This document shows, in pieces, positions 28,231-60,716 of a stretch of 64,000 nucleotides of DNA (positions are counted from its first letter, which is position 1; every line of letters begins with the position of its first letter). Location: IMG/VR virus record IMGVR_UViG_3300031938_000001, positions 1 through 64,000 of that record; one strand, written 5' to 3'. This DNA comes from a virus (taxonomy: Duplodnaviria; Caudoviricetes). A program made the translations under genes and the position numbers. The notes under the pieces were generated by a model. It saw only the letters and a list, made by a program, of their open reading frames with translations. It searched no databases and had not been told where the DNA came from.

Positions 28231-28770
28231 ATGAGCATTTCCCCAGAGGCTGTTGCCTCAGCAGAGTCCGCAATGCGCGAGGCTGGCGTTCCCACCCACG
28301 AGCGGGTGGCCGACGACTACTTCGGGTTTGAGGAGACGCACCGCGTCGCCCTCCCCGATGGCGTCTCGTTCATCGAGCACAAGACCCTCACCGAGGGTCA
28401 GCGGCGGAACTACCTCAACGGCATGAACCGCGATGTCGTCATCCAGCGCGCGACGGGCGACGCCCGCATGCGGATGGCCCCCGGCGACGAGCGCTACAGC
28501 CTCCTCAAGACCGCCATCTCCGGATGGAACCTGCAGCGCAAGGGCGGCAAGGGCGACCTCGAGCCGGTGCAGTTCACGCCGGGCAACCTCGAGAAGTTCC
28601 TGCAGTCCGCGCCGCCCAAGATCATCGACCTCATCGACAAGGAGGTCCGCAAGGTCAACGCATGGTTGATCGAGGACATGTCGGTCGAGGACATCGAGCG
28701 CGAGATCCAGACCCTGACCGAGCTCCGCGACAAGAAGCAGGAGGAGGAGGCGGGAAACGCCTCTTCGTAG
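28231..28770 (+). CDS. Tail assembly chaperone (short form)
   Basis: Between tube and tape measure genes; CAGGAGG RBS. Confidence 0.85.
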   Translation: MSISPEAVASAESAMREAGVPTHERVADDYFGFEETHRVALPDGVSFIEHKTLTEGQRRNYLNGMNRDVVIQRATGDARMRMAPGDERYSLLKTAISGWNLQRKGGKGDLEPVQFTPGNLEKFLQSAPPKIIDLIDKEVRKVNAWLIEDMSVEDIEREIQTLTELRDKKQEEEAGNASS

Positions 28771-43589: not shown

Positions 43590-43833
43590 CGGGGTCGTTC
43601 TCGCCGCCGTCATTACGGCGATCTTCTCGGGCGTTATCGGGGTGGTCACCGCATTGCCGACGGTTGTCAAGACCATCAGGGAGATCAAGCGGGGCGACAC
43701 GGAGGACTACCGCGAAGCGGTGACCTTGCGAGCGCTCATCCGGAGGCTGTACTCATGGATGAATGGTCGCGCCGTGTGGGATGATCTGCCTGACGAGATT
43801 CGTGAGTCGATAGAGCGAGAGGCTCTGAAATGA
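43576..43833 (+). CDS. Single-pass membrane protein (holin-like accessory)
   Basis: AAAGGA RBS; N-terminal hydrophobic helix. Confidence 0.7.
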   Translation: MGGSNGVVLAAVITAIFSGVIGVVTALPTVVKTIREIKRGDTEDYREAVTLRALIRRLYSWMNGRAVWDDLPDEIRESIEREALK

Positions 43834-44579
43834 CAAGGGAAATCGTGAAGCGGGAGCGGAAGGTCACGGTGGGTTTCATCGTGGTCGTCCTGTCGTTGAT
43901 CGCGCTGGGGGGGCTGGCCTTGTTTCTCTACGACCAGAACCAGATGCAGGACCGAGCGATCCACTCCCTCCAGACGGAGAGCGTCAAGAAGGGCGATGCC
44001 ATCGACGCCCTCTCCAACGACAGCAAGAAACTTCGGGACAAGTTGGCGAAGGAGGGGGTGAACCCGAACACCATCGCGCCACCCCCCGAGAAGCGCACCA
44101 ACGAGGTGCCTGAGCCGACTGTCGTCAACAACACGATCATCCAGCGGCCGACGTACGCACAGGTACAGTCAGCCGTGGAGAGCGTGATGAAGTCGAACCC
44201 TGACCTCACGCAGTCGCAGATCGTGTCGGCGGTGGGCGCCTACCTCAAGGCTAATCCGCCGCCCGCTGGCCCTGCTGGAAAGAACGGCGCCAACGGCAAG
44301 GACGGCACGAACGGTGTCGATGGCGCCAGCGGGCCGCCCGGTCCCTCGCCGACGCAGGAGCAGGTGGACGCCGCCGTGGTCGCGTACTGCGACAGCCACG
44401 ACGGGTGCGCAGGTCCACCGGGGCCGACTGGACAGCCCGGCGCCGACGGCACGGACGCAGTTCCCTTCTCGTTCATCTTCACCATTCCCGAGGATCCGCC
44501 CCTCAAGCCAGCGCGCACCTACAAGTGCACCATCTCTGCGCCGGACACCAATGCGGAGTGCGTCCTGCAGAATCAGTGA
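43830..44579 (+). CDS. Membrane-anchored coiled-coil protein with collagen-like repeats
   Basis: N-terminal TM; G-X-Y repeats; C-terminal Cys pairs. Confidence 0.75.
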   Translation: MTREIVKRERKVTVGFIVVVLSLIALGGLALFLYDQNQMQDRAIHSLQTESVKKGDAIDALSNDSKKLRDKLAKEGVNPNTIAPPPEKRTNEVPEPTVVNNTIIQRPTYAQVQSAVESVMKSNPDLTQSQIVSAVGAYLKANPPPAGPAGKNGANGKDGTNGVDGASGPPGPSPTQEQVDAAVVAYCDSHDGCAGPPGPTGQPGADGTDAVPFSFIFTIPEDPPLKPARTYKCTISAPDTNAECVLQNQ

Positions 44580-47296: not shown

Positions 47297-48451
47297 CTAG
47301 TCGATGGGGTTCTTGGCAACTACCTTCACCGACGGGTTGCCGGTCTTGTAGCCGACCAGTGCCTTGATGCGGTCCTCGGTGTCGGTGTCGAACACCTCGG
47401 ACTTGAGCATCTTGTCCACGCTGGTCATGGTGACGCCACCGTACTTCGCCATGAGGTCCGGGCCGATGATGGCCGCGAGCGAGTGCGGGTCGGTCACGGT
47501 GCGGGTGCGCCGGGCGCCGATGTTCACCACGAACTCGTCATCCTCGTAGGTGTCCACGTCGTCGGCCTCGGCGGAGGCGAGGATGAACGAGTCGAGCTCT
47601 TCCATCACCTTCGCGAGCGCCTTTGAGCGCTGCTCCACCTCGGCGCGCTTCTTGGCCGCCAGCATTGGGTCGGCCAGCGACAGCACGCCACCGGCTTCGA
47701 CGTGCTCGGTCAGCGCCTTGCAGACCTGCTTGCGGATGCACCACTGGCAGTCGGGATTGATCTTCTCCGGCACGTCATCCTCTGGCGTGGCGATGATCTT
47801 CTCGGCGGCTGCCTTGATGTAGCGCCACGTCGCGAGGTTCTCCTCGCGGGTGAACACGATCCCCACCGGGTCGTAGCGCAGCAGGTCGAACGTCACCCAC
47901 ACGCGCGGGGCGTCGGGGTACTTGATCTGCGCCGCCACGGCATACGCACGAGCCTGAATGCGGTCCCGCAGCCCATCGGGCGCCAGCCGGGCGCGGATGC
48001 TCTTGTAGTCCACGACCTCGATTGAGCCATCCTCGTGCCGGTCGAGCCGGTCGAAGATGTAGTTGAAGATGATCTCACCAGCCGTGGTCTTGATGGCGAA
48101 GTTTTCCTTCGTCTCCAACTGGATGATGTCGCGCTCGGCGAGGTCGGCGGAGCGCAAGAACCAGTTCTCCATCATCCGCAGCCCGTCGTGGCGAAGGTCG
48201 TCGCGCGACGTGCCGAACATCTCCGTGAAGGCGTTGTTGAAGATGGTGAGCAGGAGTTCGAGGCTGGGCGTGTCTGCCTTGTCGATGTAGACGCGCTGGA
48301 CGTACTCCTGCAACGCGGTGTGACAGGTGGTGCCGAGGTCGGCCGCCCACCCGGACGGCATGGGGGTCTTGTGAAGCGTCTCGGCGGCATACCGCGCTGG
48401 GCAGGACTCCCACACCTGCAGGGCGGTGGCGGATAGTGACTTGGGGATCAC
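47297..48451 (-). CDS. Cas4/RecB-like PD-(D/E)XK exonuclease
   Basis: LS.T.LQ.WE.CP, G..CH.AL, FDRLD...VVDYKS, CQWC...C; start moved to GTG 48451. Confidence 0.85.
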   Translation of the reverse strand: MIPKSLSATALQVWESCPARYAAETLHKTPMPSGWAADLGTTCHTALQEYVQRVYIDKADTPSLELLLTIFNNAFTEMFGTSRDDLRHDGLRMMENWFLRSADLAERDIIQLETKENFAIKTTAGEIIFNYIFDRLDRHEDGSIEVVDYKSIRARLAPDGLRDRIQARAYAVAAQIKYPDAPRVWVTFDLLRYDPVGIVFTREENLATWRYIKAAAEKIIATPEDDVPEKINPDCQWCIRKQVCKALTEHVEAGGVLSLADPMLAAKKRAEVEQRSKALAKVMEELDSFILASAEADDVDTYEDDEFVVNIGARRTRTVTDPHSLAAIIGPDLMAKYGGVTMTSVDKMLKSEVFDTDTEDRIKALVGYKTGNPSVKVVAKNPID

Positions 48452-48489: not shown

Positions 48490-48795
48490 CTATGCGGCGG
48501 GTCCGACATCGCTGGGCTGCTGCTGCCCGTCGATGGGGACTCGTCTCTTGCGGGGGACAATGCCGCCCCCCCACATGCCGTACTCACTGTCGGTGCGCTC
48601 TTGGTAGGAGCGGCACTCAAAGATTACGGGGCATGTGGCGCAGACATTCCGGCCGGGCTTGTGCGACTGGCCGCGCTCAGGAAAGAACCACTCGGGATCG
48701 ACTCCCGGCTTCCTGCACTCGGCCAGTCGCTGCCACGTGTCGTCCGATTCGAGAAAGAGGAATCGGGCGTGCGGAGCGTCTACGCCGGGGGAACT
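48490..48795 (-). CDS. whiB: WhiB-family Fe-S transcription factor domain without its own start codon; likely frameshift product
   Basis: Hand-translated: WQRLAEC-x24-CATCPVIFEC...YGMWGG; no ATG/GTG/TTG between in-frame stop 48973-48975 and the WGG Met. Confidence 0.85.
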   Translation of the reverse strand, partial: SSPGVDAPHARFLFLESDDTWQRLAECRKPGVDPEWFFPERGQSHKPGRNVCATCPVIFECRSYQERTDSEYGMWGGGIVPRKRRVPIDGQQQPSDVGPAA

Positions 48796-49106
48796 TTTCC
48801 CGAGCGTCCGGTGGGCGCCGCCTCGGAGGATGCAGCCTCGGCCTTGTCGCCCAGCCCGAGCGGGAGCACCATCTGGCCGGGGACCTGCTCGTCGTCGTCG
48901 GCCGGGGTGGTGATGCCCGCCTCGGGATTCTCCGTCAACGACGCCTCTGCGATGCTCTCGACGGTGGCGAGGTCAGCCGGCGAGGGCTCTGCCATCTCGA
49001 ACAGGGCGTCAGGGTTGGTGGGTCGGGGGCTGAAGTCGGTGACGCCGTGGGGAACGACGTTGCCGTCGAAGAAGGTGACGGGGTGAACCGTCCGAACTTC
49101 GGTCAT
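48780..49106 (-). CDS. Acidic, probably disordered protein carrying QMVLPL and ending at slippery G GGA AAA
   Basis: AAAGG RBS; heptamer at 48795-48801. Confidence 0.8.
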   Translation of the reverse strand: MTEVRTVHPVTFFDGNVVPHGVTDFSPRPTNPDALFEMAEPSPADLATVESIAEASLTENPEAGITTPADDDEQVPGQMVLPLGLGDKAEAASSEAAPTGRSGKVPPA

Positions 49107-49169: not shown

Positions 49170-49874
49170 TCAAACGAACAGGGTATCCATCTCCAGCCGG
49201 TTTCGGCTGTGTCGAACATGGTCGGCGTCCAACTCGATGCCGATAGAGTTGAGGCCCAACTGCTGAGCCGCCTTGGAGGAACTGCCAGACCCGCTGAACG
49301 GGTCCACGACGAGATCGCCGGGGTTGGTGCTGATCTTGAGGAGCTCTTCGAGGAGCGGGACGGGCTTCTCAGTCGGGTGGATGATCTTCGAAGGGGGAAC
49401 CTTCTCGTAGTTGAGCACTCCCGAGCGCCGGTATGGCACCTTGCGCAGGCCCTTCTTGGCGTAGAGGATCAACTCGTGGCCGCAGCCCCAGTTGGAGTCG
49501 ATGTCCCCGGTGCCGGGCTCCATCTTGTTCCAGATGAGCATCATCTTGTACTTGAACCCATGCCGGGACAGCGAGCGCACGGCGTCGATCCAGTCGCCCA
49601 CGATGTCCCAGCGGGTGAACACGTACAGTTCCGCCTCGTCAGCGCACTTGGGCAGCACCACGTCCATCACGTCTTGGAACAGCCCGAGCGCCCCGGTGAG
49701 GTCGAGGTCGTTCGCCACGTCCTTGACCCAGCGCAGACCCTCGGGGGTGGTCGCGTGCCGCGAGCGGTAGTTGACCCCGTACGGCGGGTCGGTCAGGACG
49801 CACTTGATCTCACCCTCGATGTTGTGGCCCAACTCGAGGCTGTCTCCGTGCCAGATTTCGTTGGTCGTCATCAT
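49170..49874 (-). CDS. DNA N6-adenine/N4-cytosine methyltransferase (beta class)
   Basis: LTDPPYG, HPTEKP, DPFSGSGS; start ATG 49874. Confidence 0.9.
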   Translation of the reverse strand: MMTTNEIWHGDSLELGHNIEGEIKCVLTDPPYGVNYRSRHATTPEGLRWVKDVANDLDLTGALGLFQDVMDVVLPKCADEAELYVFTRWDIVGDWIDAVRSLSRHGFKYKMMLIWNKMEPGTGDIDSNWGCGHELILYAKKGLRKVPYRRSGVLNYEKVPPSKIIHPTEKPVPLLEELLKISTNPGDLVVDPFSGSGSSSKAAQQLGLNSIGIELDADHVRHSRNRLEMDTLFV

Positions 49875-50203
49875 CTTCCTCCGAGGGTCGGATAGTCGGC
49901 AAAGTCGGGCGGAGAGCACTCATGACTGTGTATCTCGGAACACTCGGGGCACACGAAGGTCATGCTCGGCTTCGCACCCACGAGGGTGATGCTGGCAGGC
50001 ATGATCTCGAGGTGAAGGGTCGCCCAGCCCGTTGCCTCGATACTGAGGTTCAGGGCGTGGATGTTGTGGACGATCTCGCCATTGGAGTCATACACGCGAG
50101 TGCCGTGCGTGGTGCCGTCGGTGAACACCCGCCAGTCGCCACGGGCGTTGGCGGTGTCCATGGACGACTCGGGGGCGTCGGGGATCGGGTCGGCGATGTC
50201 CAT
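49871..50203 (-). CDS. Hypothetical protein with C-terminal CPEC
   Basis: TGATG coupling at 50203. Confidence 0.65.
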   Translation of the reverse strand: MDIADPIPDAPESSMDTANARGDWRVFTDGTTHGTRVYDSNGEIVHNIHALNLSIEATGWATLHLEIMPASITLVGAKPSMTFVCPECSEIHSHECSPPDFADYPTLGGR

Positions 50204-51156: not shown

Positions 51157-52326
51157 TCACTCCGCCACCGGACCCACGTCGGTCTTGCGACGGGGCATGA
51201 GCCACGACTCGAACCCGAGCCCGTCCCACACCTTCACCGGCACGCCGTTGCGGTCGGTGCGGTAGCCGAGGCTCACGGTGTCGGTGCGCGGCTGGTCGAG
51301 GCAGTCGGTGATGGTGGTCGGCGTGAAGTGGATGACGAACTCCTCGGGGGCGCCCTCCTCCTCGATGGCGGGGTGGGCAACCGTCTCGGTGGAGATGTCC
51401 ACCTCGTCGGTCATGGTGCCCACCGAGGGGACGGTCATCTCGAGGTAGATCGTGTCGGGCGTGAAGGTGCACGTCACGATGGGGTAGCGCTCGCCCTTGG
51501 CGATGAGCCCGGTCATGCGGGTGAGCGCCTCGCGGAGCCGGATGCGCGGGGCGGTGACGACCCGGTTGAAGATCGTCGCGTCCATGATCTTCTCGATGTT
51601 GGGGTAGCCCATGTCGTAGATGATGGCCCTCATCTGCGTGTACTCGTCCGGCATGATGAGGACGTAGTTCGGGTTGGCCCCGAGGCGCACGTCCTCGACG
51701 CTCTTGAGGATCGGGCCGAGGGTGTCCATCGGCACGGTCACGGGGGCTTCCAGCGCCGCGTCGCACGGGGTCCGCACGAGCCGGTACTTGTCGGTGGCGA
51801 AGATGTGCGTGCCGGTGAGGTGGATGCCGCTGAACGGCACGGCATCCTTGTCGCAGGCCCACGCCGCCTGTGCCACGCGAGCCGGGAAGTCCTTCACGTC
51901 GTGCAGGGCGTCCGGGTCGAACGGCTCCCACCGCTTGTAGGAGTCGGCCTTCATGACATTGATCGACGCCTTGGCCTTGCCGCTGCGGAGCATGATGTTG
52001 CCACCGTGGTCCTCGCGGGTGATCGTGACGGTCTTGCCGCTGCCGATGGGCATCCCGGCGCAGAACCCAGCAAAGATGCTCGACGGCAGGCGCCAGTCGA
52101 AGTCCTCGTCGCTGTGGATCTCGAGCGGCTGAACCCACTCGAGGTAGTCCACCTCGAGGTTGGTCGCCTTGATGGTGATCTGGCGGCCCGGCTCGGCGAA
52201 CGGGCGACCCTCGATGAGGATGCCCGCCGCCTTGTCGAACGCCATGCCCTTGCTCGGGGCAACGCGAGCCGCCTTGCCGACCGCCGACGCGAGGCCGGCT
52301 GTCTCGAACGTGACTGAGATGGTCAT
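51157..52326 (-). CDS. dnaN: DNA polymerase III beta sliding clamp homolog
   Basis: 389 aa; ATNLE, ATDKYRL, YPNIEKI motifs of beta clamp. Confidence 0.85.
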   Translation of the reverse strand: MTISVTFETAGLASAVGKAARVAPSKGMAFDKAAGILIEGRPFAEPGRQITIKATNLEVDYLEWVQPLEIHSDEDFDWRLPSSIFAGFCAGMPIGSGKTVTITREDHGGNIMLRSGKAKASINVMKADSYKRWEPFDPDALHDVKDFPARVAQAAWACDKDAVPFSGIHLTGTHIFATDKYRLVRTPCDAALEAPVTVPMDTLGPILKSVEDVRLGANPNYVLIMPDEYTQMRAIIYDMGYPNIEKIMDATIFNRVVTAPRIRLREALTRMTGLIAKGERYPIVTCTFTPDTIYLEMTVPSVGTMTDEVDISTETVAHPAIEEEGAPEEFVIHFTPTTITDCLDQPRTDTVSLGYRTDRNGVPVKVWDGLGFESWLMPRRKTDVGPVAE

Positions 52327-59642: not shown

Positions 59643-60716
59643 TCAGGCGCTCGCCTTCGCCTCGGCCTTGGCCGCCTTGCGAGCCGCGCTGGCCTCCGCC
59701 TTGAGAGCGGAGAGGCCCTTCTCCCGGCCGGCGTCGGTGTAGTCACCGAACGCCTTCGGCTTGGGGGAGAGGGTGGCGAAGCCGATGCCCTCCCAGCGGT
59801 CGAGGACGGCCGAGACGGCGCCGGTCGAGGGAGCCTTCTCCGCGCCACGCCGCTGCTGGACCTCCTTGGCGATCCGGTGCGGCGTGAGGCTCTCGCCCTC
59901 GGCGAGGGTGATCTTGCCGGTCACAAAGTCGTCCGTGACGGCCTTGACCTCGGGCTCGAGGTCGGTGCGCGCGGCGCGCTCCCGCTTCGGCTTGTCCTCG
60001 GCCACGGCCTCCGCGACCGGCTCGGTGCTGGCAGCCTCGGCGCGAGCGGCCTCGGCCTGTTCGTCGGCCTCGCGCTCGGTGTCGGTGCGCGCGTCGGCCA
60101 CCGCTTCCTCGGCGGGGACCTCGACGGCCACCGATGCCACGCCCTCGGGCTTGTCGTACTCGAAGTCCTCGGTGGGCTCGGCCACCGCGACCTCCTCGTG
60201 CTGCGTGTCGCTCACTTCGACCTCCATGTTTGGGACGCTTCCCGGCTTGGGAAGACCATCAGTAACGTTACTCGACAAGAGCACGTCACGCAAGGATGGT
60301 CCGAATCTTTTTCCAGTCGAGCGCTCCCACCCGGTGCCGAACACGTCGTCGAGGTACTCGCGGTGACACTCGCAGGTGCAAGGGATCTGGTCGTTATACT
60401 TCGCCTCCTTGCGGGTGCCGGGAGAGAAGAACCACACCTTGCATCGGGTGTGCGCCTCCAGTGGGGTGGTTTGCATGCACCACCCACTGATGGTGCGGGT
60501 CGGCTCGAGGCGCGGCCCGTCATACGCTGGCAAGGTGATGCGCTCGGGCGCCCGAAGTCGAGGTGGGGCAATGTCGCGCGCCGGGCTCGGCGATGTCGGT
60601 GCCGTGTGCTCCGCCGGGCCGCCGGATGTCAGCGACATGGGTTCCGTCTCGACTCCGAGCGCAGCGGCGAACAGGTCTTCGACCTCGGCGTTCTTGTTGG
60701 TGATGATCCCGGTCAC
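59643..60716 (-). CDS. Protein with Cys motifs, acidic linker and C-terminal winged-helix-like domain
   Basis: GTGA coupling; LTPHRIAKEV...PSTGAVSAVLDRW. Confidence 0.7.
   Translation of the reverse strand: MTGIITNKNAEVEDLFAAALGVETEPMSLTSGGPAEHTAPTSPSPARDIAPPRLRAPERITLPAYDGPRLEPTRTISGWCMQTTPLEAHTRCKVWFFSPGTRKEAKYNDQIPCTCECHREYLDDVFGTGWERSTGKRFGPSLRDVLLSSNVTDGLPKPGSVPNMEVEVSDTQHEEVAVAEPTEDFEYDKPEGVASVAVEVPAEEAVADARTDTEREADEQAEAARAEAASTEPVAEAVAEDKPKRERAARTDLEPEVKAVTDDFVTGKITLAEGESLTPHRIAKEVQQRRGAEKAPSTGAVSAVLDRWEGIGFATLSPKPKAFGDYTDAGREKGLSALKAEASAARKAAKAEAKASA

Follow-up and report, generated by a model that had tools for sequence, protein, structure and literature searches.

In tailed dsDNA phages, the G and GT forms of the tail assembly chaperone arise by a −1 frameshift (Levin 1993; Xu, Hendrix & Duda 2004; both as cited in the recoding review PMC5009743). 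The shift occurs a few codons 5′ of the 0-frame stop, on a heptamer of the type X XXY YYZ, and results in a short product next to a C-terminally extended fusion with a common N-terminus, the arrangement being conserved by position rather than by sequence. This tail-chaperone site excepted, programmed frameshifts of phages are almost never annotated. The same set of features is reported here for a WhiB-type (Wbl) domain that is predicted to be fused, via a −1 slip, to the product of an upstream ORF (referred to as ORF1) in a 64,000-nt stretch of phage DNA (referred to as the window, i.e., positions 1 to 64,000 of IMG/VR record IMGVR_UViG_3300031938_000001, a 72.8-kb virus record with terminal repeats). 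In contrast to the tail chaperone, the ORF1–WhiB arrangement concerns a predicted transcription-factor fusion in the early/replication arm instead of virion assembly, its extension is a recognisable and widespread domain, and the position of the predicted shift has moved within the family.

Two further −1 systems resemble the locus in other respects. In the IS3 family, OrfA/OrfAB (IS911, IS150) likewise consists of a small N-terminal protein that is made either alone or −1-fused to a start-less domain, by means of an A-rich heptamer near the stop. In these elements, the short form acts as a modulator of the long one, and the downstream domain is a DDE transposase as opposed to the predicted Fe–S regulator of ORF1–WhiB. 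Moreover, IS911 has defined stimulators (i.e., an upstream Shine-Dalgarno (SD) sequence and a three-way junction), whereas none is evident at the ORF1–WhiB site. The tau/gamma shift of Escherichia coli dnaX (A AAA AAG) is comparable as a bacterial-type −1 programmed ribosomal frameshift (PRF): it takes place on a Lys codon, belongs to an operon associated with replication and leads to two products. The ratio of these products is set, dnaX has well-defined stimulators of the SD-like and hairpin type, and the shifted product is the shorter one, unlike in ORF1–WhiB.

With respect to the protein, known Wbl regulators, including the WhiB of phage TM4 (PMC8612146; PMC6954389, PMC13013590), share the Pfam domain, the four Cys residues, the G[IVM]WGG turn and a basic C-terminal tail with the WhiB of the window. 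Ordinary cellular and phage Wbl genes nevertheless have their own start and encode 80–130 aa, whereas the WhiB of the window is start-less and predicted to acquire a 104-aa acidic N-terminal extension from another frame. While the mechanism of −1 frameshifting is itself already known, the WhiB case is undescribed in the literature searched. Full-text searches (WhiB combined with frameshift or slippery) returned no description of a frameshift-made WhiB, in agreement with an earlier note on this DNA whose author knew of no described frameshift-gated WhiB. Frameshifting is not mentioned in the 2021 survey of phage WhiB genes (PMC8612146), WhiB does not occur in the 2016 recoding review (PMC5009743; first 300,000 characters), the PRFect paper does not contain the word 'WhiB', and a term search of the latter paper returned no non-tail case.

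ORF1 and the start-less WhiB frame in the window

The locus is made up of the following features:

48780–49106, minus strand: ORF1 (0 frame), 108 aa, acidic; putative short product made without a slip
48795–48801, minus strand: G GGA AAA as slippery heptamer, in phase with ORF1 and 4 codons 5′ of its stop
48490–48801, minus strand: post-slip −1 frame, with linker, WhiB domain and basic tail, ending at the TAG at 48492–48490
48541–48735, minus strand: WhiB (Wbl) domain with W, four Cys and GMWGG; 54.7 bits, stop-free inside
47297–48451, minus strand: Cas4-type PD-(D/E)XK exonuclease, 3′ of WhiB; conserved synteny anchor
49170–49919, minus strand: N6/N4 DNA methylase, 5′ of ORF1; conserved neighbour

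ORF1 begins with an ATG at 49106, has a Shine-Dalgarno-like site (GAAAGG) 10 nt 5′ of this ATG, and ends as tcG GGA AAA gtt ccc ccg gcg TAG (with the TAG at 48782–48780). The WhiB frame is −1 relative to ORF1 and is open from 48972 down to its TAG on the minus strand; 103 open codons, the WhiB domain included, separate the heptamer from the TAG. From its opening through to the Met of GMWGG, this frame is devoid of ATG, GTG and TTG codons. Within the 64-codon permissive overlap of both frames, G GGA AAA is the only in-frame X XXY YYZ heptamer, and a −1 slip at this position is predicted to yield an ORF1–WhiB fusion of 104 + 101 = 205 aa. The WhiB frame matches Pfam PF02467 (E 5e-14; 53 bits vs. 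a cut-off of 23.6; profile positions 1–63 of 65), and the domain is also matched by PHROG 472 (E 8e-16). The earlier note, made from the letters alone, had pointed out a full WhiB domain in a start-less frame, a 108-aa upstream ORF with a good ribosome binding site, and a −1 slip leading to about 205 aa. The first of these is confirmed by frame analysis together with the Pfam match, the second is borne out by the GAAAGG tract, and the calculated fusion has the predicted junction; its account of the sequence features of the window is accurate in every detail.

The G GGA AAA arrangement of the window is more than chance. Among the 20,060 in-frame codon positions of the 74 high-GC3 ORFs in the window, X XXY YYZ heptamers occur in frame 24 times, six of them with Y = A/T. 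The heptamer moreover consists of unusual codons, with AAA being used 22 times vs. 720 times for AAG (i.e., 3% of Lys codons) and GGA being the rarest Gly codon in this genome. A heptamer no more than five codons from a stop, in combination with a −1 extension of at least 95 codons, was encountered only twice, i.e., at the WhiB site and at the tail-chaperone site of the same genome:

28752–28758, plus strand: slippery site G GGA AAC of the tail assembly chaperone; ORF 28231–28770 stops 3 codons further on

At this second site, the −1 frame continues to 29039, resulting in a 95-codon extension that adjoins the tape-measure start (29036). The parallel in geometry that the earlier note had drawn between both sites therefore holds, as the tail-chaperone heptamer combines a nearby stop with a long −1 extension. 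Two other heptamers lie in ORFs with a long open −1 frame, i.e., C CCA AAC at 60228–60234 (minus strand; ORF 60782–59643, −1 frame open for 163 codons) and G GGT TTC at 43871–43877 (plus strand; ORF 43830–44579, −1 frame open for 80 codons). Both may well be chance occurrences in DNA of 65% GC.

Related loci and the position of the heptamer

A nucleotide search of the phage collection returned no relative of the window, nor did a single-protein Cas4 scan of viral contigs, and Cas4 alignments were used instead. With the WhiB frame as query, tblastn retrieved Gordonia phage Diabla and Tsukamurella phage TIN2, in which the synteny is as in the window (i.e., methylase, ORF1-like gene, WhiB and Cas4). 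Loci were gathered with Cas4 as an unbiased anchor from viral contigs, metagenomes, genomes and a protein collection, and their reading frames were analyzed by script.

This yielded at least 30 related loci in which the frame offset is always −1 and three different heptamers are found (G GGA AAA, C CCA AAA and C CCT TTA). With the exception of L036, all complete loci have WhiB in the −1 frame of an acidic upstream ORF that carries the N-terminal peptide motif of ORF1, and have no canonical WhiB-frame start 5′ of the Trp codon (in a few, an ATG follows the Trp or a GTG lies inside). Each locus has one X XXY YYZ heptamer in frame within the permissive overlap, with a second, non-conserved one in L008 and L023, and the −1 frame opens 0–24 nt 5′ of the heptamer in many loci and 0–9 nt in several. 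In a 22-sequence alignment, the Trp, the four Cys (C-x(n)-C-x2-C-x5-C) and the G[IVM]WGG turn are invariant. As judged from these sequences, the layout is common to dozens of related actinophages. The earlier note had named conservation of the heptamer, the early stop and the frame offset as a check on its reading, and had regarded homologues that are all in-frame or that have their own WhiB start as speaking against it. The tblastn and locus survey revealed a −1 offset throughout and slipperiness that was kept, while an own WhiB start was found in L036 only, next to a possible GTG in L038, which also has a heptamer.

The fact that the genome is a metagenome-assembled virus record could suggest an assembly indel within a continuous gene, or an unexpressed WhiB pseudogene. 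However, the identical 108-aa ORF1 is present on five contigs from different assemblies, among them an independent Logan assembly of SRR9025829 in which the genes are arranged alike, which makes an assembly indel very unlikely. The −1 offset is also common to six close and more than 20 distant relatives, finished isolate genomes included. Decay is in turn at odds with a WhiB frame that, in every member, is stop-free over 103 codons and retains all four Cys, the W and GxWGG. An artefact or decayed gene is therefore scarcely credible.

The six close relatives of the window are metagenome loci that together with it constitute a short lineage (Cas4 50–72% identical). G GGA AAA is found in L012, L030, L031, L038 and L039, and C CCA AAA in L032, where the amino acid has changed while the slipperiness has been kept. 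In six out of seven short-lineage loci (window counted), the heptamer is located exactly 4 codons 5′ of the ORF1 stop. Since the −1 frame opens 21, 9 and 3 nt 5′ of the heptamer in L012, L032 and L039, respectively, a shift is possible only at the heptamer itself. Between L012 and the window, ORF1 is 50% identical, yet the ~30 nt around the site are the same.

In the long lineages, the site is located further upstream. The C CCA AAA group comprises ~14 distinct, more distant loci (of metagenome, genome and isolate origin), among which soil metagenomes, a Streptomyces assembly, the Rhodococcus phages ReqiDocB7 and Perlina, and the Gordonia phage RobinSparkles. Here the site lies 60–70 codons ahead of the first WhiB Cys, and in L017, L019, L025 and L035 a TGA abuts the heptamer. 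At the homologous place, 10 loci have C CCT TTA (Montyvirus, Tinduovirus and GTE7-like Gordonia/Tsukamurella phages). In both groups, a conserved four-Cys module (C-x-G-x-C ... C-x-C-G-x-G) comes right after the heptamer and is followed by WhiB. Because this module is encoded in the −1 frame, 50–60 codons 5′ of the ORF1 stop, and directly follows the heptamer, it indicates −1 frame coding from the heptamer onward. When the long-lineage transframe protein was used in tblastn, 96 isolate phage records were retrieved, with each match running across two annotated genes.

The Cys module itself (e.g., L027:2004–2150, L017:418–560 and L004:2648–2790) is absent from the window. It yielded no Pfam match and may constitute a second metal site; no fold could be assigned to it from an AF2 model of the long-lineage transframe protein (pLDDT ~50). 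The window lineage has lost this module and its slippery site has moved to the ORF1 end, while the ancestral P-L position persists in the ORF1 of the window as L-P-L-G, which is no longer slippery. The window represents a distinct sub-lineage (with G GGA AAA, the site at the ORF end and no Cys module), and its comparison with the other lineages helps to separate the needs of the shift from the needs of the protein.

Two loci bear on the question of whether WhiB could be translated separately, i.e., through termination-reinitiation or from a non-canonical start near the ORF1 stop, with an unfused product of ~95 aa and an incidental heptamer. In the distant locus L036, there is no heptamer and the WhiB start is a GTG that overlaps with the stop of ORF1, while L038 has a possible GTG start at the homologous codon overlapping its TGA, in addition to its heptamer. 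These GTG codons indicate that ORF1–WhiB coupling exists in the family, and that in some lineages unfused expression of WhiB is possible. However, at the homologous codon the window, L012, L030 and L031 have GTA and L032 has TTA, none of which is a start, and no ATG, GTG or TTG is present between the opening of the −1 frame and the first Cys in the window and in most of the at least 30 loci. Moreover, separate translation leaves unexplained that every lineage retains, in the right register, a slippery heptamer of rare codons, and that a Cys module so far upstream of the ORF1 stop is conserved in the long lineage. For the window, separate translation is thus very unlikely. As read from their sequences, the loci nevertheless show that translation of WhiB is always linked to that of ORF1, and that fusion is not the sole solution across the wider family.

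Other WhiB configurations were observed as well. In L036 (2001–3425), WhiB reads on in frame into Cas4, and in the proteins P0054, P0063 and P0103, WhiB is in frame with a Cas4 exonuclease within one 460–500-aa protein (PF02467 + PF12705). L036 also has another WhiB gene, of the ordinary kind (233–478), which has a start of its own and is located 5′ of RusA and the methylase. A natural in-frame ORF1–WhiB fusion was not found among the best 150 matches of a profile search against 1.84 billion representatives, the long matches having unrelated N-terminal extensions.

The predicted slip and its signals

All three heptamers are compatible with tandem tRNA re-pairing and in phase with ORF1, and are therefore a signature of ribosomal −1 frameshifting, which speaks against both transcriptional slippage and separate initiation. 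Programmed −1 ribosomal frameshifting very probably gives rise to both a 108-aa short form and the 205-aa ORF1–WhiB fusion. The earlier note had proposed the same, and its proposal is supported by the constant −1 offset in at least 30 loci, the start-less WhiB frame and the varied yet slippery heptamers. Ribosomes would initiate at the ORF1 ATG, after which the majority would read GGA-AAA in frame and terminate four codons on, thereby releasing the 108-aa acidic protein. On G GGA AAA, a fraction would shift one base backwards, with tRNA-Gly re-pairing from GGA to GGG and tRNA-Lys from AAA to AAA, and would subsequently translate a short linker and the whole WhiB domain up to the stop at 48490. 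Because its frame lacks a start codon, the WhiB domain would have no other route to expression. The slip would presumably be ribosomal and give a fixed ratio of short to long product.

A continuous ORF1–WhiB frame could also be created in a subset of the mRNA if RNA polymerase were to drop or add a base in the A4 or C5 run. Short homopolymers are indeed present at the site (GGG, AAAA and CCCCC), and slippage-based recoding is known in bacteria and phages (cf. PMC5009743). However, these runs are only 3–5 nt long, and the C CCT TTA lineage has none above 3 nt. Known productive transcriptional slippage requires runs of about 6–9 nt or more. Furthermore, the conserved phase of X XXY YYZ with the 0 frame corresponds to the tRNA re-pairing rule, which is irrelevant to transcription, and transcriptional slippage is thus highly improbable.

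Returning to ribosomal frameshifting, the A-site codons AAA and UUA are very rare in these high-GC genomes and may aid pausing. Since all three heptamers put such a very rare codon in the A site, the efficiency of the slip could also track the state of the tRNA. The slip would then be a regulated switch instead of a fixed ratio, in which the proportion of WhiB fusion to short ORF1 follows the supply or modification of tRNA-Lys(UUU) or of a bldA-like tRNA-Leu(UAA), the short form antagonises or partners the fusion via the N-terminal peptide, and early-to-late transcription is timed to host physiology. Thiolation of tRNA-Lys relies on the same sulfur/Fe–S machinery that loads WhiB. A link comparable to this tRNA-modification idea has been made for lambda G/GT (PMC3296357). 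Such a switch is on the whole unlikely, and a programmed slip, presumably at a fixed ratio, is the reading we prefer.

A convincing stimulatory RNA was not found by folding, covariation analysis, an Rfam search or inspection of upstream SD-like tracts. Folds of the 60 and 90 nt 3′ of each heptamer (ViennaRNA) had an MFE z of ~0 in the window lineage, i.e., they were no stabler than shuffles. One structure was noted in the window:

48744–48766, minus strand: candidate hairpin with a 7-bp stem and a 9-nt loop, 28 nt past the heptamer; a single base pair changed in a compensatory manner in L012; no statistical support for a role as stimulator

Every short-lineage member has a 6–7-bp hairpin just 5′ of the Trp codon, 20–33 nt from the site (vs. 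the 5–9 nt typical of a downstream stimulator), although out of register between members, and RNAalifold on five sequences revealed weak covariation. The site region had no match in Rfam, and SD-like tracts (GGAGG-like) were present 5′ of the site in some relatives only. A long-range CCCGGC/GCCGGG pairing was considered as stimulator and rejected, since it coincides with a conserved K-P-G coding stretch.

Predicted products and their annotation

The conserved part of ORF1 is a ~30-aa N-terminal peptide (R-x-[IVL]-x-P-[VFY]..F ... D-F-x-P in the homologue alignment), which is common to the short and fused products. No Pfam or PHROG family was matched by the ORF1 of the window. An endonuclease identity (PHROG 6890) was rejected, as it fits the Gordonia ORF1 homologues only and has no domain support. 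ORF1 homologues are labelled 'endonuclease' in RefSeq (e.g., L002, NC_028865, 2163–2585) and hypothetical in SEA-PHAGES/GenBank records; the RefSeq label looks propagated, a nuclease domain not having been found.

For the WhiB part of a relative, an AF2 model reached a pLDDT of 85–94. Based on the knowledge of Wbl structures (PMC6954389, PMC13013590), the WhiB part of the fusion is predicted to hold a [4Fe-4S] cluster and should bind region 4 of sigma-A. The fusion would in this way act as an Fe–S, WhiB-type regulator of the host RNA polymerase, via sigma-A region 4, in the early/replication phase. The shared N-terminal peptide may supply a second contact, and the short form may compete with or partner the fusion, by analogy with OrfA/OrfAB of the IS3 family. 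If the frameshift reading is true, the phage would have a regulator in two forms with a common N-terminal peptide, and the recoding event would decide whether a WhiB-type regulator is made at all.

At the position of WhiB, public records for the family list a stub of 33 aa, a fragment with an internal start, or no gene (cf. Diabla and TIN2, with a 33-aa 'WhiB' or no WhiB call), and a joined CDS for the transframe protein was absent from the four isolate records inspected. As a consequence, this family is overlooked or recorded at the wrong size when phage WhiB genes are surveyed. The arrangement occurs in about one hundred sequenced phages of Gordonia, Rhodococcus and Tsukamurella, and also in many phages from soil metagenomes. 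With three natural heptamers and two natural positions, the family offers a clean and testable non-structural −1 PRF system in actinobacteria, which is relevant to specialists of both recoding and actinophages.

Finally, a Q-M-V-L-P-L stretch in ORF1 (48858–48875, minus strand) resembles a clamp-binding hexapeptide. A clamp-binding motif is nevertheless no more than a weak lead, since the corresponding stretch is QLELPL in L012 and QLALIG in L031, is absent from L030 and L032, and is thus not conserved. A homologue of the sliding clamp beta is encoded in the same operon (51157–52326, minus strand; with tblastn matches to annotated phage clamps), and a phage sliding clamp co-occurs in this phage group.
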